Below, piece by piece: positions 11,890 through 26,539 of a DNA stretch of 44,644 nucleotides. The notes under the pieces are model-generated. The model was not told the origin of the DNA. It saw only the letters and a program-made list of their open reading frames with translations, and searched no databases. The stretch comes from an uncultured bacterium (GTDB lineage Bacteria; Patescibacteriota; Minisyncoccia; Phycocordibacterales; CAIZLB01), in NCBI GenBank assembly GCA_903864515.1, contig CAIPFZ010000027.1, positions 1 to 44,644 of the forward strand. The letters run 5' to 3'. The position numbers and the translations under genes were made by a program. The stretch's first letter is position 1. The number at the start of each line of letters is the position of its first letter.

Positions 11890-12999
11890 TTATTTAAGTT
11901 CTACAGGTATTCCAGACTTAATGATCATTGTCTTAAAATCTTTTGTGAAAGCCCCCTTTCCATCGGAATTCAAAATACCAGATTGTCCGTCATATGTCTT
12001 AATGTTATTAAGATATTTTTGCACAACGTTTGTGTCCAGAGACTTTGTTTCCTTTATACCTTTAGCAATCAACATAACAGCATCGTAAGCTGAATCAGAT
12101 CCAATTTCCACTTCTCTATTGTAAATACTTTTATATTTTGCTGAGAAATCTGCTTTAGGAGTAAGGGCGGTTAAAAACTCCCAACCGTTACATGTTCCCT
12201 CACAATTCTTTATAACTGTATTATCTAGTGTTATGGAATATGTTGGCATCTTAATCCCCAAATCTCTCATTTGTTTTCCATATACAGAGGTTAATCCGTA
12301 ACCATCTGAAGTAACAACAATTGCTTGCAGATCTTTTATTTGCTTAAGTTTCAATAAATCTGTTCTTACGTCTCTCTGATCTGTTGTTGGTTCGTAAACA
12401 AAACTCACAACACCACCCAATTTTTCAAATCTTTCCTTGAAAGCCATAGTCTGCGCCTTACACCAAACTTCATTAGCTCCAAGTATCGCTACGTTTTTAA
12501 CACCTTTAGCAAGCACGTAATCAGCAAGCTTTGCAGAAAGAATGTAATCATGAGGCCATGTGTTGAATATGAATTTACTTGTTTCGTTAAAGTTAGCATT
12601 TCCAAGACTTGGAGAAATGACGATTTCATTAGTAATTAAATCCTTTATAGGATCGCCGTTCTTTGACCAAGATGGACCAACGATAAATTTAACACCATCT
12701 GTTTGAGTTAGCTTTCTAAACGCACCAACTGTTTTAGCTGGGTCTCCTGCATCATCTTCATGTATGGCAACAACCTTCTTACCAAGTATTCCACCTTGAT
12801 CGTTTATTTCTTTGATTGCCAAATCCATTCCATTTCTAGCAGCTTCTCCCCATGAAGCACCGTCCCCTGATTCAATCAAGATGCTACCAATTTTTATTTC
12901 ATTAATTGCAGATAAATTGTTTTGATTCTTGTTACTGACCCAAACTCCCAAGACAATCAAAATGATTATCACTATTCCAATTATTATTTTTTTATTCAT
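11890..12999 (-). CDS. LivJ/LivK-like substrate-binding protein (SBP5)
   Basis: INDQGGILGKKV, SAYDAV, GQSG..DGKG; start moved to MNKKII because the longer ORF runs through ribozyme copy 1. Confidence 0.9.
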   Translation of the reverse strand: MNKKIIIGIVIIILIVLGVWVSNKNQNNLSAINEIKIGSILIESGDGASWGEAARNGMDLAIKEINDQGGILGKKVVAIHEDDAGDPAKTVGAFRKLTQTDGVKFIVGPSWSKNGDPIKDLITNEIVISPSLGNANFNETSKFIFNTWPHDYILSAKLADYVLAKGVKNVAILGANEVWCKAQTMAFKERFEKLGGVVSFVYEPTTDQRDVRTDLLKLKQIKDLQAIVVTSDGYGLTSVYGKQMRDLGIKMPTYSITLDNTVIKNCEGTCNGWEFLTALTPKADFSAKYKSIYNREVEIGSDSAYDAVMLIAKGIKETKSLDTNVVQKYLNNIKTYDGQSGILNSDGKGAFTKDFKTMIIKSGIPVELK

Positions 13000-13041
13000 A
13001 TTATTTATATATTTGTTTAATTTTACCCCTCGAAAATATGT

Positions 13042-13124
13042 CAATTTGTTTCGTCCTTTTAGACTCATCAGGCAAGATACACATCTTGCGACAGTGGAAG
13101 TTTTAGGAGAAACTTCCAAACCGA
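13042..13124 (-). ncRNA. type III hammerhead ribozyme, copy 1, with upstream hairpin
   Basis: minus strand: UGUC^GCAAGAU-GUGU-AUCUUGC-CUGAUGA-GUCU-AAAA-GGAC-GAAACA; predicted cleavage between 13090 and 13089. Confidence 0.88.
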
Positions 13125-13134
13125 TTTGAAAAAT

Positions 13135-13623
13135 CTAGTGCCAACAATACTTAGAAGATGAATATCCCCCGATTTCACCAAATACTTCACAAGGCTTGGA
13201 CTTCTTTCCAATCATCAAAGTAAGAATTATCGGATTTTCTTCACCTCCAGTAAAAACTTGTTTGAGAATACTTTTCCAGATAGCAACATCTTCCTTTGTG
13301 CCGTAAAAAATCTTACCGATATCTCCGACACTCACGCATTCCTTTCCATGGCCAAACCCTCCACTTACGATAATGGTTGGAACCATCCAGCTCCAACACA
13401 GGCAAGCTACCTTGAACCCAGAATGTTTTTCCTCCATATTCATGTCAGAAATGACAAAATCAAATTTTGGACAATCATTTCCGACCTCATTGAAGAAATC
13501 AGCTGCGGAATTAAAAGTTGATATGTTGGCGTTTGGTAGAAATTCATTAATAGCAATAACTGCTGCTTTGAGATTTTCTGGAGTATCATCAACTATCGCA
13601 ATATTTTTGATATTGTTTTTCAT
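13135..13623 (-). CDS. stand-alone response-regulator receiver (REC)-like protein
   Basis: IAIVDD, DFVISDMNME (phospho-Asp), PTIIVSG. Confidence 0.75.
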   Translation of the reverse strand: MKNNIKNIAIVDDTPENLKAAVIAINEFLPNANISTFNSAADFFNEVGNDCPKFDFVISDMNMEEKHSGFKVACLCWSWMVPTIIVSGGFGHGKECVSVGDIGKIFYGTKEDVAIWKSILKQVFTGGEENPIILTLMIGKKSKPCEVFGEIGGYSSSKYCWH

Positions 13624-13657
13624 TTTTCTATACTTTCTACTTTTGTTTTAAAGATCT

Positions 13658-13743
13658 GGTTTCTGTTTCGTCCTTTTGGACTCATCAGGCAAGATACATA
13701 TCTTGCGACAGTGGAAGTTTTAGGAGAAACTTCCAAACCGATT
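13658..13743 (-). ncRNA. type III hammerhead ribozyme, copy 2, with upstream hairpin
   Basis: CUGUC^GCAAGAU-AUGU-AUCUUGC-CUGAUGA-GUCC-AAAA-GGAC-GAAACAG; predicted cleavage between 13707 and 13706. Confidence 0.95.
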
Positions 13744-13761
13744 ACAGTAGATACCAGTTAA

Positions 13762-14217
13762 TCATTGAAGCCTGCGAATAAACGCAAACTCAATACCGCT
13801 ACCGTATGGGACATTCATTGCGTAATCGAAACCATGGAAATGGTGAACCGCAAGAAAGACGTTACTTACAGACCTTTCTTGTCCAGGCTGTTGTGCCCTT
13901 CTAGACTCAGATGCAAAGACAAAACATTCTTCATTTCCCAACCCCTCCTGAATGACGTAATGAAATGGCAAGTAAGATGGACAAAGATCAAAGCCATCAG
14001 CAAGCGCTAAGTCAAAGAACTCCTTGCAAGGCACTACACCGGTGAGTTTGTATTTACAGCACCTCAACCCAACAAGCTCAACGGTTTCAATCTGAGGAAC
14101 TTGTCCAGGTAAAAAATGTCTTGCAATGTTTGGATATTTATTAACAGCCTTTTCTTGAAGTTGACGTCCGCTAATTCCACCAATTTGAAGACGTGGAACA
14201 ATTATTCTTTGGCACAT
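13762..14217 (-). CDS. hypothetical protein (ribozyme-flanked cargo)
   Basis: 151-aa ORF filling the interval between ribozymes 3 and 2; shared leader motif. Confidence 0.7.
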   Translation of the reverse strand: MCQRIIVPRLQIGGISGRQLQEKAVNKYPNIARHFLPGQVPQIETVELVGLRCCKYKLTGVVPCKEFFDLALADGFDLCPSYLPFHYVIQEGLGNEECFVFASESRRAQQPGQERSVSNVFLAVHHFHGFDYAMNVPYGSGIEFAFIRRLQ

Positions 14218-14246
14218 AATTTTTCTCTACTTGTTTTAATGACCAT

Positions 14247-14329
14247 GTTTCTGTTTCGTCTTTTCAGACTCATCAGGCAAGATACACATCTTGCAACAGT
14301 GGAAGTTTTAGGAGAAACTTCCAAACCGA
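14247..14329 (-). ncRNA. type III hammerhead ribozyme, copy 3, with upstream hairpin
   Basis: CUGUU^GCAAGAU-GUGU-AUCUUGC-CUGAUGA-GUCU-GAAA-AGAC-GAAACAG; GUU triplet; predicted cleavage between 14295 and 14294. Confidence 0.9.
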
Positions 14330-14336
14330 GTGTCAA

Positions 14337-14549
14337 TCAATAATCATCATCATAGTTAGGCATACGTCCGCCATTGAACCTTACATCCCTAACAATTGAT
14401 TCCATACCAGGGCCAATCTTTTTTGCCTCTTCCATTGCCTGACAGTAAAGATCCCCTGCAAGCCGATGATCATCAATTCGGCGGTCTTCTTTGAGACATT
14501 GCTTCATCAAATCATCAATCTTCTTCAGTTTTTCTCTTATATTACTCAT
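14337..14549 (-). CDS. small helical hypothetical protein (first gene of ribozyme array)
   Basis: 70-aa ORF; AAGTAGAAAGGA upstream of ATG; stop codon 7 nt before repeat copy 3. Confidence 0.65.
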   Translation of the reverse strand: MSNIREKLKKIDDLMKQCLKEDRRIDDHRLAGDLYCQAMEEAKKIGPGMESIVRDVRFNGGRMPNYDDDY

Positions 14550-14673
14550 ATTTATTCCTTTCTACTTGGTGTGCTTTATCACCAGGTTCTGACATAAATA
14601 TATTCCTAAATTACATATTGTGTTGAGAAATAGAGCTTAAATGTAATAGAATACCCATATTTCCCAATATATA

Positions 14674-22153: not shown

Positions 22154-23284
22154 CTACTTCACCTCCTTAACCACCACCATCTCCCCTCCCTTAATATTAT
22201 AAATATTTATTGGAGTATCTTTTGCGGAATGTTTTGAAGTGAATGAGGTATCTCCATTTACTGTCTTGAATGTGTTGCCTTCTATATACTTTGGTATTTC
22301 TTCAGCCGTTTTTGATTTTGCAATGGATTCTGCAAGAATATAAATTGCATCATAACTTTTATTAGCTCCTCTTCTTGGTTTTTCTCCATATTTTTTCTCA
22401 AATCTTTTTACAAACTCATCAGAAGGGACTTCCCAATCAATCATTATTACACCTTCAATCTTACTCTTATCTACCTTTTGATTATTGAACACATCTCTCA
22501 TTGTCGTATAAGCAATTAATTGTGGTTTGAAATTTAAATTCTCCGCCACCTCAAGATATTTTACAATATCAAAATCTAACATATCCAAGAAAACTGCCGT
22601 AGGTTTCTTATCAACCAATTTAAGGATATTTGTCCTAAAATCGCTTGATCCAATAGCGGTATAAGATTCAACATTAAAAGAACCTTTGTCTTTCATAATA
22701 TTTGCAAGCGTATGTTCGATAGATTCACCAAACCCTGACTTATATCTAATCATCGCAAGATTATTAATTTTATTATCCGCAATTACAGAATCCAATTGAG
22801 AAATAACCTGATTGAATTTTGGGTACAAAACAAAACTATAATCATTCATTTCAAATGACCCGTCTATTTGAAAATTTACAGGAGAAATAAATACCTTCTT
22901 ATCCTTTTGTGCAAGTGCAAAAATTGGTTGCGCGGTAAAATCAAAAATCCCACCAATCACAGCATCAGCATTTTGAATTCCAACAAGTTTCTGATATGCA
23001 GAGACAGACCCTTGTGGTGTTGTTTGATCGTCCTCTATGTAGAGCTCAACAGGCCTACCATCTATACCACCGTTTTTGTTTATCTCCTCAACTGCCAAAT
23101 CCATTGCCTTCTTAGACATATTCCCAAAATCAGCTGCTACCCCCGTTAGTGAAATCATCGCTCCAATTTTTATAGGCTTTGCGCTCTTTGACAGAGTGCC
23201 GCCCTGCTTATTACCTACATTAAATATTAATACCAAACCCAAAGCCACAGCTATTAGTATTACCAAATATATTATTTTCTTCAT
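22154..23284 (-). CDS. LivJ/LivK-like substrate-binding protein (SBP8)
   Basis: KIGAMISLTG, INKNGGIDGRPVEL, DFRTNILKL, SYDAI. Confidence 0.9.
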   Translation of the reverse strand: MKKIIYLVILIAVALGLVLIFNVGNKQGGTLSKSAKPIKIGAMISLTGVAADFGNMSKKAMDLAVEEINKNGGIDGRPVELYIEDDQTTPQGSVSAYQKLVGIQNADAVIGGIFDFTAQPIFALAQKDKKVFISPVNFQIDGSFEMNDYSFVLYPKFNQVISQLDSVIADNKINNLAMIRYKSGFGESIEHTLANIMKDKGSFNVESYTAIGSSDFRTNILKLVDKKPTAVFLDMLDFDIVKYLEVAENLNFKPQLIAYTTMRDVFNNQKVDKSKIEGVIMIDWEVPSDEFVKRFEKKYGEKPRRGANKSYDAIYILAESIAKSKTAEEIPKYIEGNTFKTVNGDTSFTSKHSAKDTPINIYNIKGGEMVVVKEVK

Positions 23285-23354
23285 ATTGGACAATAGTATA
23301 TATTATGTGTTATTATTGTTAACAGTTCGGCGAATTACGAATAACAATGAAAAT

Positions 23355-24128
23355 ATGACCCAAAAGACTAGTACTGAAAATCTATTTAAGACACTTCAAA
23401 TAAAACCTAACGCTCAGCTTGTTTTAGACTATTTAATCAAACACGGCCTATCCCCTGTTAAAGACATAGCTCACTCTTTAAATATACCTAAATCAACTGT
23501 ATACGATTCCCTAGACGAGCTAGTCACACAAAGTTTAGTCATAGAATACTCTGAAGAAAGAGGTCGTATTTTTGGAATTGCGGACAAAGAACAAATTGCC
23601 AAAATTAGTGAACAGAAGATTAAGGAACTCCAAGATAATCAAAATAAATTAATCGAATATATCAAAAACACGGAGCGTGAAGATCCTACTTCAAAACCTA
23701 AGATAAAATTTTATTTTGGCAAGGAAGGAATTAAGCAAGCCTTTAGAGATACAATGTGGAATGAGAAATGCAAACAAACATATCTAATGTGGTCCACAAA
23801 GGACATGTTAGATATCCTTGGACCAGAGTTTAGCGAGTGGCATAGCTCAATGAGACTCAGACATAAAATTGTATTGAATGTAATCAGAAAGAAAGAAGAC
23901 AAGAAATTTGATAAAACCGAAGGTCTTAAAGAAGGATGGAACAGTTTTAGAGACATTAGACAAGCACCCAAAAATATTGATTGGAACATGAGTTATTGGA
24001 TATATGACAATAGAGTCTTATTTTCCGGTGGAGGAAGTGATAAATTTGCCTTTGTTGTGCATGACAAAGAATTTGCAAATCTAATGACAACTTTATGGAA
24101 GCAGGTCTGGGAAATTAGTGAGAAGTAG
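23355..24128 (+). CDS. TrmB-family regulator (pair 8)
   Basis: IPKSTVYDSLDELVTQSLV; KIKFYFGKEGIK; WIYDNRV; start moved to MTQK. Confidence 0.88.
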   Translation: MTQKTSTENLFKTLQIKPNAQLVLDYLIKHGLSPVKDIAHSLNIPKSTVYDSLDELVTQSLVIEYSEERGRIFGIADKEQIAKISEQKIKELQDNQNKLIEYIKNTEREDPTSKPKIKFYFGKEGIKQAFRDTMWNEKCKQTYLMWSTKDMLDILGPEFSEWHSSMRLRHKIVLNVIRKKEDKKFDKTEGLKEGWNSFRDIRQAPKNIDWNMSYWIYDNRVLFSGGGSDKFAFVVHDKEFANLMTTLWKQVWEISEK

Positions 24129-24154: not shown

Positions 24155-25021
24155 CTACAACTTATACTCCCCCATGAACCCCTGCGGTCTATACATCATC
24201 AAGAACAATAGAAGCAATCCATATACGACTTGTCTCATTTGAGCAGCCACATCTGTTGGAAAGCCAACAAAGCGTAACGCCTCAGGCAACAACATCAAGA
24301 ACACTGTTCCCCAGAACACTCCCTTATTACTTGCAAGCCCTCCTAATATAACAATTGATAGAATAAAGATTGATTCATTCAATGAGAAACTTGATGGATC
24401 AATGAAGGTAATGTAAGAAGCAAAGAGTGCACCAGCGACAGCCGCCATTCCTGCGGCTAACACAAAAACAATCATTTTGTATATTTTTGTATTATACCCA
24501 AAGACAGAAATTGCTTGCTCATCCTCTCTGATTGCCTTTATTACTCGTCCAAAGCTAGAGCCAACAATATATTGTGATAATAAATAGACAAGAAGAGCGA
24601 GAACGGCCGAGAGAATTAAAAAATGCAAATTTGATTTAAATATAAAATCAAATATTTGCGGCCTCCCTATTCCTGGAATTCCGAGTGGTCCTCTTGTTAG
24701 ACTTTGCCAATTCAACATTATACTGAATGCGATAATATTAAAACCAAAAGATGCTAGTGCATAATAGTCCCCCTTAAACTTCCCGAGTATTGCACCAAGA
24801 ACCAAGGAGACAATCATGGCAATTATCATACCCACAATCATCGCCAAGAAAAAGTTCCATCCATATGAAGTCATTAGTATCGCCGTTCCATACGCCCCCA
24901 CCCCAAAGAATGTTGCGTGTGTGATTGAAAGTAACCCTGTATATCCCACAACAAGATTTAAACTAATTCCTAGTATTGACCAAATCGAAATTAAAACCAA
25001 AAGGTGAATTATATATTCCAT
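24155..25021 (-). CDS. livM: branched-chain amino acid ABC transporter permease (LivM-type)
   Basis: LNLVVGYTGLLS, GDYYALAS, LTRGPLGI, SSFGRVIKAIREDE, LGGL. Confidence 0.9.
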   Translation of the reverse strand: MEYIIHLLVLISIWSILGISLNLVVGYTGLLSITHATFFGVGAYGTAILMTSYGWNFFLAMIVGMIIAMIVSLVLGAILGKFKGDYYALASFGFNIIAFSIMLNWQSLTRGPLGIPGIGRPQIFDFIFKSNLHFLILSAVLALLVYLLSQYIVGSSFGRVIKAIREDEQAISVFGYNTKIYKMIVFVLAAGMAAVAGALFASYITFIDPSSFSLNESIFILSIVILGGLASNKGVFWGTVFLMLLPEALRFVGFPTDVAAQMRQVVYGLLLLFLMMYRPQGFMGEYKL

Positions 25022-25068
25022 ATTTAAATAATATCAAAAAAGAAGGCGGGTGGCGAATTTCCTAATAG

Positions 25069-25117
25069 AAAAAAACCGCCCATTTAGGGTCGGCAGGAGG
25101 ACGACGAGATCATCCTC
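25069..25117 (-). terminator. hairpin plus intrinsic terminator
   Basis: GAGGAUGA-UCUCG-UCGUCCUC then CCGACCC-UAAAU-GGGCGG-U7. Confidence 0.7.
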
Positions 25118-25132
25118 AATAAAAATGAAAGC

Positions 25133-25399
25133 GGGTGCGGAAACCCTTGATAAGCTAATATGCTAAGTACGAGAAGTGTTCCCTCTCGGATTATCACATC
25201 TACATGACTACGAAGAAAAAGACGCGTAACCGAAAACCATTAACCGCGCCACAAACAATACAATCGTAGACAGTATACCTTTTGAATATTAGCTCACTCA
25301 ATGTACAAACAGAACTCTCGTGCCTTACCGGCATTGAACAGGAATTGCATCAATCTCACAACCTGAAGAGGCAACTACCCGCAAGGATGTTCCGCACCC
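25133..25399 (-). ncRNA. putative structured non-coding RNA, class unassigned
   Basis: nested helices with 10+5-bp closing stem; TGcTATATT at 25414-25406 places the start at the closing stem; no ORF of 60 aa or more. Confidence 0.65.
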
Positions 25400-25864
25400 A
25401 CAGATAATATAGCATACAAATTTAAAGTTAAACAGTCTTAAACAACATACAAGAAGCTAGTATTTCACATTATTAATAAAATAATTTAACACTCAAATGG
25501 TTTCAATAATTAGGGACAAGTCAGCAAGTGTGTCATAGTACACAATTTAGCTTGACACATGTCAAGGGTAGGAACATACTTACTAAGTCGCAAGGATGTC
25601 TCATCAAGAATAAATAATTAGAGCTCGGAATTTTCATTTAAAAATCGACTGCGGTAACTTCTCCCCTCCCGCATTGAAAAGTATCTAATTATTTATTCAA
25701 ATTAAAGTTTAATCACAAAGGATCACAAGTCCAAAGTTTTTTCCTTTTCTAGATATTTTTACTTCTTAATAATATTAGATAAATAGCAGCAATATTATCA
25801 GACCATTAATTGTTTACATTTAATTGGAAAAATAAAGTTGTACGCTAAATAATAAAATAAAATT

Positions 25865-26539
25865 ATGAATAAAATAATAAATTCTCTTAAGACTACAAAA
25901 AGTTTTATAATCGCATTAGGTTTAACAACAGCAGTATTATTTACTGTAATAATGCCTTCAATCACAAGTGCTGATGTACTTTATCGTCAATTACAATTAG
26001 GATCACGTGGTGCTGATGTTACATCACTCCAATCTTTCCTAGCAGAGGATTCCACAATTTACCCACAAGGTAAAGTAACTGGATACTTTGGATCACTTAC
26101 AAAGTCAGCTGTTTCAAATTTCCAAGCACGTAATGGTATTGCAACAGTAGGACGTGTTGGACCATCAACTCTTCCTGTGATAAATGAGCAAATGTTGAAT
26201 GGAGTAGATGCCGGTGCAAATATTTCAGCTCCAATCATAACTAGTGCAGGAGTTAATAATATCAGTAGAAATTCAGCAACAATCAATTGGTATACAAATG
26301 AGAATGCAAAAGGTTTAGTTTATTACAGTACAACCCCACTTAGTTTAGGAGAACACTTAAACTCAGTTGACGTATCAGGAAACACAGCGATGGTTGATTC
26401 AAACTATCGTACAAATCAATCTGTTACACTACAAAACTTACAGCCAAATACAACCTATTACTACCTAGCGTATGTAACAGGTCTATCAGGTAGAGTTAGT
26501 ATCACATGGCCTGCAACATTCACAACTTCAAGCTACTAG
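25865..26539 (+). CDS. secreted peptidoglycan-binding domain + fibronectin type III protein
   Basis: LQLGSRGADVTSLQ...TGYFGSLTKSAVSNFQ...GRVGP; ATINW...LQPNTTYYY. Confidence 0.88.
   Translation: MNKIINSLKTTKSFIIALGLTTAVLFTVIMPSITSADVLYRQLQLGSRGADVTSLQSFLAEDSTIYPQGKVTGYFGSLTKSAVSNFQARNGIATVGRVGPSTLPVINEQMLNGVDAGANISAPIITSAGVNNISRNSATINWYTNENAKGLVYYSTTPLSLGEHLNSVDVSGNTAMVDSNYRTNQSVTLQNLQPNTTYYYLAYVTGLSGRVSITWPATFTTSSY

Follow-up and report, generated by a model that had tools for sequence, protein, structure and literature searches.

A candidate stand-alone RNA gene with a covarying terminal helix and a fast-changing body in one genus of Patescibacteria

6S RNA combines low sequence conservation with a conserved shape; the msr-msd RNA of retrons pairs its two ends in a terminal stem and carries a hypervariable body; and RNase III processing stalks, such as the precursor stems of rRNA and the R1.1-type sites of phage T7, have a recognizable duplex geometry. 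To our knowledge almost nothing is known about the regulatory RNAs of Patescibacteria, whose tiny genomes have little room for spare DNA, and in the portions of the literature available to our searches we found no description of non-coding RNAs from this group. Here we analyse a 44,644-nucleotide stretch of DNA (hereafter the window), contig C27 of an uncultured patescibacterium (genome G000; 0.93 Mb, 83% complete, 36% GC; genomes of its relatives span 0.5-1.1 Mb), and within it an RNA gene that sits inside an 843-nt gap free of open reading frames (ORFs) at 25022-25864. The core of the RNA comprises 267 nt (25399-25133), and its predicted primary transcript extends for ~331 nt, from 25399 to 25069 on the minus strand (Table 1).

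We conclude with good confidence that this is a real RNA gene under selection, and that it probably stands alone rather than serving as a leader of the adjoining permease gene, livM; that it represents a new family of stand-alone non-coding RNAs (ncRNAs), restricted as far as we have searched to one genus of Patescibacteria, is the reading we favour, with some reserve. The kind of gene is familiar, and the family, with its unusually fast-changing body, is new. An earlier note on this DNA, made from the sequence alone, had suggested a novel ncRNA at this site, and the lack of an Rfam match, the gene's own promoter and terminator, the covariation of its terminal helix (P1) and a set of structure-preserving substitutions in a close strain all speak in favour of that suggestion. 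Of the generic attributes of a stand-alone small-RNA gene, those that can be read from sequence are present: a promoter, a terminator, no ORF and a covarying P1.

Terminal helix and layout of the RNA gene

In two genus-mates, G003 and G004, the LivM protein is 99% identical to that of the window and the DNA flanks are 83-87% identical; alignment ends at ~25061 and resumes at ~25508-25525, leaving 446-464 nt between the aligned flanks that are unalignable. Read by eye, these unaligned inserts share one order of parts: a promoter, P1, a body, the P1 3' strand, a linker of 10-15 nt, a hairpin, and finally a terminator that carries a run of U. BLAST with the G003 RNA brought up a fourth version, in G006; the G003 and G004 RNAs together, searched against 50 genomes of the family, returned G003, G004, G006 and a number of short matches, which we rejected because they sit in unrelated coding or AT-rich DNA. 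A pattern scan of metagenomes with the palindrome block that lies beside the gene (described below) gave 37 loci, comprising one new member (contig L084), one operator without the RNA (contig L076) and 35 unrelated sites. The five versions compared here, from the window, G003, G004, G006 and L084, have cores of 267, 274, 250, 230 and 211 nt, respectively, with G+U-rich bodies of 167-234 nt.

P1 pairs the 5' end of the RNA with a site ~65 nt before the 3' end. The window helix consists of 10 bp, one bulged base and 7 bp; among the versions its length ranges from 17 to 22 bp, and every version carries a one-base bulge, which lies on the 3' strand in G004 and on the 5' strand in the other four. 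Over the five syntenic versions P1 covaries: six of the 15 pairs counted in the alignment, in which 98.7% of cells are paired, have changed on both sides, a number reached in none of 500 shuffles, and slid controls give 0-1. A GGAA/UUCC block within the helix is invariant in all five, and the cells that depart from Watson-Crick pairing comprise four G-U and one U-U, whereas A-C is absent from the transcribed strand. The structure of P1 is under selection, and this duplex is the only element of the RNA in which selection on both sequence and structure can be seen.

A closely related strain offers a second, independent signal. Contigs from sequencing run X5 that are 95-99% identical to the window (depth 2-3.4, the differences being drawn from more than one contig) carry 13 substitutions in the core, eight of which keep a pair (one pair having changed on both sides), four of which are unpaired, and one of which breaks a pair. 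Among the pair-keeping changes are the replacement of A36-U42 by G-C and several conversions of A-U or G-C into G-U that are tolerated only on the minus strand, and when the same substitutions are placed at random an energy as good arises in 0.45% of 2000 trials (p about 0.005). Nine of the 13 fall within the 43-nt hairpin H2 (six keeping pairs, with the pair changed on both sides among them, two in the loop and one breaking a pair), and at the base of the predicted arm H4 an A>G change at position 239 is accommodated as a G-U pair. This fast, compensated change in H2 could reflect either diversifying selection or a structural arm whose sequence is under loosened constraint.

Both ends of the predicted transcript are marked by candidate signals. 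The earlier note had placed a minus-strand extended -10 element so as to give a +1 at about 25399, and direct reading of the sequence agrees, the element lying 6 nt ahead of G25399; the promoter scanner gives a neighbouring hexamer pair instead (25431..25404, TTAACT-16-TATTAT, 9/12). In the homologues a TG-extended TATATT is followed within 5-9 nt by P1, and in three of the four (G003, G006 and L084) the scanner flags a TG-extended promoter 5-7 nt before that helix. At the other end, the hairpin and the terminator that the note described both appear in the predicted fold. The remaining four versions have a hairpin of different sequence (AAGGUAA...UUACCUU) at the position of the window's hairpin A, a terminator stem shows in each fold that took in the 3' tail (those of the window, G003 and G004), and the terminator scanner flags equivalent sites in two of the five (G006 and L084).

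Table 1. Features of the RNA gene and its flanks (window coordinates)
Feature	Position	Strand	Description
PG_binding_1/FN3-like gene	25865-26539	plus	one flank of the gap, divergent
Operator-like block	25529-25565	none	palindromes TGTGT-N6-ACACA (25529-25544) and TTGACA-CA-TGTCAA (25552-25565)
RNA-gene promoter	25406-25434	minus	extended -10 TGcTATATT (25414-25406); weak -35 at ~25426-25434
P1 5' strand	25382-25399	minus	RNA positions 1-18; contains the invariant GGAA; in predicted folds
Hairpin H2	25339-25381	minus	RNA positions 19-61; minimum-free-energy fold; fastest-changing part between close strains
Predicted hairpin H3	25298-25337	minus	RNA positions 63-102; minimum-free-energy prediction only
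Predicted long arm H4	25150-25297	minus	RNA positions 103-250; internal three-way branch; minimum-free-energy prediction, inner branches prediction-only
P1 3' strand	25133-25149	minus	RNA positions 251-267; contains the invariant UUCC
3' hairpin A	25097-25117	minus	9 bp, GAGGAUGAU-CUC-GUCGUCCUC; starts 15 nt past P1; in fold
Intrinsic-terminator-like stem and U7	25069-25094	minus	GCCGACCC-UAAAU-GGGCGGU, then the U run; in fold
livM extended -10 promoter	25028-25036	minus	TGATATTAT; 6 nt upstream of the start codon (ATG, 25021); outside the RNA; scanner row 25056..25028 (TG ahead of its second hexamer)
BPD_transp_2 permease gene (livM-like)	24155-25021	minus	other flank of the gap

Folding, distribution and family membership

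The minus strand of 25040-25420 folds at -119.3 kcal/mol (z = -3.87, with none of 100 dinucleotide shuffles as good), as against z = -0.84 for the plus strand (17 of 100 shuffles as good), and all five versions fold with z between -3.35 and -5.5. In each of the five predicted minimum-free-energy folds P1 closes a junction from which two short hairpins and one long branched arm emerge; the predicted shape is a four-way junction with ~85-100 nt on its 5' side and almost none on its 3' side. Five of the seven helices listed in the earlier note recur in this fold (25133-42/25390-99, 25145-49/25382-86, 25153-61/25286-94, 25170-74/25184-88 and 25208-13/25264-69), and the other two (25321-25/25369-73 and 25339-42/25362-65) are absent, their place being taken by hairpin H2, which is a better fit to the X5 substitutions.

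Almost the whole of the folding signal comes from the terminal helix: the interior of the window RNA alone gives z = -1.08, with 15 of 100 shuffles as good. Of the multibranched RNA that had been proposed, closure by the covarying P1 stands; the interior, being no more stable than shuffled sequence, is therefore a weakly supported prediction. The equivalent of H3 keeps its pairs through two-sided changes in G006 and L084 (two sequences only), and RNAalifold applied to these two closest versions retains 63 pairs, 12 of them via two-sided changes, which is no more than suggestive of structure in the body, since the method favours covarying pairs and the comparison is of two sequences. The bodies align unreliably under plain MAFFT, and for that reason covariation over all five versions is counted within P1. 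In composition, the cores have a GC content of 0.45-0.52, compared with an intergenic mean of 0.33 and 0.36 for the genome, and G+U makes up 55-62% of the RNA, with A low, a pattern that supports constraint at the level of RNA.

The RNA is present in four of the seven species genomes of the genus. At the same site in G005 the palindrome block is joined straight to the livM promoter, and in G002 other DNA fills the 1.6 kb between the flanking genes, with no long-range stem; both genomes are 98% complete. The locus is absent in G001. No comparable stem-closed element lies upstream of 24 PG_binding orthologues in five other genera, where one stem-closed candidate turned out to be a tRNA pair, and phage and plasmid collections held no match to the RNA. 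What stays constant across the versions is the neighbourhood on one side, made up of the divergent PG_binding gene together with the palindrome block, and on this account we read the RNA as an independent unit. The block itself is kept in contigs L084 and L076 as well as in G003, G004, G005 and G006. The palindromes of the relatives directly adjoin the -35 of the RNA promoter; the window has a new promoter ~100 nt further from the operator, suggesting that expression has been kept through promoter turnover, probably under the control of a palindrome-binding regulator.

With G006 and L084 as its basis, a covariance model detects G003 at 48 bits (E 1e-10). Among 150 relatives it returns only G006 and G003 and misses the known members G000 and G004, so that its silence in 148 of the 150 is weak evidence of absence. 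A re-alignment was dropped, having drawn in matches on the opposite strand.

Several observations weigh against the reading of a stand-alone ncRNA gene of a new family. The same model does not find the window RNA and gives G004 a score of 7.5 bits (E 0.07, filters off); when 61 genomes are searched with the window RNA, BLAST yields only itself and one 24-nt chance match; and no word of at least six bases is common to all five versions, the 6-mers found in four of the five at matching positions (TGGAAG and CTTCCA) lying only in P1 and both being absent from the window. The window RNA is provisionally grouped with the others by its same position, its same layout and a likeness of P1 (GGGUGCGGAA versus GGGCGUGGAA), not by a significant alignment. 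The covariation set holds five sequences from one genus, for which reason the events are few, and the five bodies, once P1 is taken away, do not exceed their shuffles in stability (z from -0.01 to -1.73). For G004, G006 and L084, three of the five versions, the opposite strand folds about equally well, so that the strand is assigned by way of the promoter, the terminator and the G-U pairs. The promoter scanner does not flag the G004 RNA promoter, and the terminator scanner flags no site in the window, the stem seen in the fold included. Two of the 20 sequencing runs considered are labelled RNA (X20 and X9, the latter probably DNA), and the sole RNA-library contig on the region, from metatranscriptome X20, covers 25525-25700, outside the RNA. 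Finally, the suggestion that P1 may be cleaved by RNase III or held by a protein partner is drawn by analogy from its geometry only.

Known families and rival explanations

Rfam 15 (4227 models) yields no match at gathering score in the whole window, so that the scan proposed in the earlier note names no family at threshold. With E up to 10, the region 24900-25900 has one match, RF02857, which lies outside the RNA and reaches 16.5 bits where the gathering score is 197, and the G003, G004 and G006 loci have six, all far under gathering scores. ARAGORN reports no tRNA or tmRNA in the window, and no small ORF is common to the versions. Several other kinds of element were considered and rejected: a bacterial Y RNA, as there is no TROVE match in the 83% complete G000 or among the window ORFs; an RNA of CsrB/RsmZ type, with 1-5 GGA motifs per RNA, at or below shuffled expectation, and 0-1 in predicted loops; and the template of a diversity-generating retroelement, because the genome has no second copy. 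A search of the genome for base-pairing targets gave antisense and sense matches that were at best 13-14-mers, at chance level, a recurring 14-mer coming from repeated coding sequence.

One alternative raised by the earlier note is a leader controlling read-through into livM, that is, a cis-acting attenuator in which a signal sensed by the structured RNA would determine whether transcription passes the terminator into this branched-chain amino-acid permease gene. Bacterial genes for amino-acid transporters commonly have leaders, the RNA shares the orientation of livM and lies upstream of it in four of the five versions, and a terminator stands between the two. However, each of the six versions read (window, G002, G003, G004, G005 and L084) has a promoter for livM itself, TGnTATTAT, placed 6-7 nt ahead of the ATG, and these include G005 and G002, which have no RNA. 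From this arrangement the livM mRNA is predicted to be leaderless or nearly so; livM is preceded by no visible Shine-Dalgarno sequence, so a read-through transcript would carry the livM start codon internally. Moreover, a separately promoted and separately terminated small ORF intervenes between RNA and livM in G003 and L084, downstream of the RNA in G006 a 47-aa ORF and an S30AE/HPF gene, both unrelated, stand in place of livM, reading of the five 3' tails revealed no conserved alternative pairing that would compete with the terminator, and there is no T-box or riboswitch match in Rfam, on which grounds a leader of those two classes was also rejected. Given the conserved promoter of livM itself and a relative with other genes downstream, we regard a livM leader as improbable. 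The note's other suggestion, a highly diverged housekeeping RNA (signal recognition particle (SRP) RNA, RNase P RNA, tmRNA or 6S RNA), could appeal to the lack of any RNase P, SRP or tmRNA match at threshold in G000, where smpB is present on contig C6, and to a size similar to that of large SRP RNAs; the SRP models RF00169 and RF01854 in fact match none of the seven genomes of the genus, whose SRP RNA may be too diverged for the models or missed by the first-look filter. But RNase P RNA (RF00010) is located on other contigs in five of the six genus relatives (89-106 bits), among them the RNA-bearing G003, G004 and G006, and the best match in G000, at 7.6 bits, also lies elsewhere in the genome. 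None of the SRP (RF00169, RF01854, RF01857), RNase P, tmRNA or 6S models matches the four loci at E up to 10, the tmRNA (RF00023) matches of G000 are all elsewhere and below cut-off, and the RNA contains no conserved ORF. Housekeeping RNAs of these four kinds have universally conserved motifs, whereas here no sequence is conserved beyond P1, and the RNA is missing from its site in the two 98%-complete genomes G005 and G002. We therefore consider a housekeeping RNA highly improbable.

A different class of explanation holds that the inverted repeats act as DNA, either as the ends of an invertible segment (an inverton) or as a decayed miniature transposon, kept alike by recombination. The significant fold does come almost wholly from an inverted repeat, the opposite strand folds about as well in G004, G006 and L084, and a hypervariable body missing from the same site in two species would suit such an element. 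Yet the element is single-copy in G000, with neither arm found elsewhere and no paralogue recovered by a search for long-range stems (one candidate falls inside smpB); reading of the junctions shows no target-site duplication; and the 50 window ORFs scanned include no reverse transcriptase, recombinase or transposase family. A miniature inverted-repeat transposable element, which the earlier note had weighed on the supposition of many copies, was rejected on these points, its inverted repeats notwithstanding. Further, mismatches between the arms comprise four G-U and no A-C on the transcribed strand, a single-base bulge recurs in all five versions, the X5 substitutions preserve pairing in the body too, a promoter abuts one arm while a hairpin and terminator follow the other, and the three alignable versions hold the body in the same orientation. 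Four sequencing runs contain no strand-changing joint, a weak point in that assembled contigs hide minority forms. On balance a DNA-level element is a rather unlikely reading. The locus might instead be a near-neutral remnant: what separates livM from an operator-controlled promoter would then be a decayed cassette or a transcribed spacer, in which only the insulation by a strong hairpin and terminator is maintained. In favour of this, the interior has neither conserved sequence nor significant extra stability, the RNA was lost without replacement in G005 and G002, and the locus also gains and loses a small ORF. Neutrality sits poorly with a P1 kept through six two-sided changes, with a window promoter renewed ~100 nt further from the operator rather than lost, with a GC content held at 0.45-0.52 against 0.33 for intergenic DNA, and with hairpin substitutions that are compensated between close strains, and we judge it unlikely.

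Surroundings, possible mode of action and comparison with known RNAs

The operator-like block is common to the RNA gene and the divergent PG_binding_1 gene, towards which a promoter scan gives a promoter-like TTGACA-17-CATACT at 25552-25580 (+); the palindromes would bind a regulator protein. Further into the long untranslated leader of the PG_binding_1 gene, at 25650-25673 (+), lies a hairpin, UGCGG-(14-nt C/U-rich loop UAACUUCUCCCCUC)-CCGCA, whose loop resembles an anti-Shine-Dalgarno sequence and which has equivalents, likewise with C-rich loops, in G002 and contig L076. On the other side, the small ORF found beside the RNA in relatives belongs to a fast-evolving family of 102-113 aa proteins ending in GHEDD[IL] or GHDPDDI (L016:2510-2851, L084:796-1104 and L017:2493-2819), with no Pfam family and no meaningful PADLOC family; members also occur in G002, without the RNA, and the window retains only the 3' half of the small-ORF terminator (~25038-25058). 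Runs X1-X4, in which this DNA recurs, come from one lake-water study; in X1 the same sample also contains a second strain that carries, across a joint from 25056 to 25525, 880 other letters in place of the 468-nt RNA region, the size of a G003-type insert (RNA plus small ORF).

Beyond the gap, the window encodes ten Peripla_BP_6 (LivJ/K-like) binding-protein genes in an array at 205-24128, mostly head-to-head with a gene for a TrmB-type helix-turn-helix protein (the neighbouring TrmB-like one lies at 23076-24128); in a genome of ~1 Mb such an expansion is unusual. The livM-like permease is solitary, with no adjoining livH, livG or livF. An extracytoplasmic function (ECF) sigma factor gene is also encoded in the window. 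Elsewhere in G000, a nearly identical coding stretch of ~150 nt recurs at contig ends (the end of C9, both ends of C20 and the start of C54) and is probably a multicopy gene that breaks the assembly. ARAGORN identifies a tRNA-Tyr of 86 nt, of the long-arm bacterial type, and on two contigs calls a tRNA-Ser with a 907-nt intron (13655-14658) and a tRNA-Gly with a 501-nt intron (12575-13162), which are either group I-type introns or false calls.

As to what the RNA might do, we tentatively picture a non-essential, lineage-specific RNA that acts in trans, protein-bound or processed through its terminal helix, a possibility we rate as less likely than not. P1 would be the handle recognized by a double-strand-RNA-binding protein or by RNase III, the gene for which is present in G000, on contig C73; a bulged duplex of ~20 bp that ties the 5' end to the 3' region resembles, by analogy, the geometry of such binding or processing sites. 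The body would be the lineage-specific working or cargo part, and synthesis would be controlled from the conserved palindromic operator shared with the divergent gene for a cell-wall-binding protein. The RNA would be dispensable, because two species (G005 and G002) lack it at this site. More speculatively, and with little probability in our view, the gene could belong to a class of stem-clamped RNAs of ultra-small bacteria with hypervariable bodies, in which the terminal duplex is a protein handle and the fast-evolving, compensated hairpins confer specificity, whether as guide, as decoy or as determinant of immunity or recognition; this would explain both the diversification between close strains and the presence or absence of the RNA among species.

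That promoter, P1 and terminator are kept while the body is rewritten between species points either to selection on shape over sequence or to diversifying pressure. BLAST and the covariance model missed orthologues that synteny alone revealed, and similar genes are thus likely to be under-counted. The wider weight of the family is modest, since it is confined so far to one genus.

Among described RNAs, the stand-alone RNA gene proposed here most invites comparison with three. Like 6S RNA, it is a stand-alone gene of the abundant-RNA type with a long closing stem; it differs in giving no RF00013 match at E up to 10, in its predicted four-way junction in place of a rod with a central bubble, and in being dispensable within its genus. 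With RNase III processing stalks it shares a ~20-bp duplex with a small bulge, formed from sequences that flank a structured body; in contrast to those precursors, the body is not a known mature RNA, and the likeness is one of geometry only. As in retron msr-msd RNA, the ends are paired in a terminal stem and the body is hypervariable between relatives, but there is no reverse transcriptase among the window ORFs scanned or beside the RNA in the loci read, and no Rfam retron model matches.

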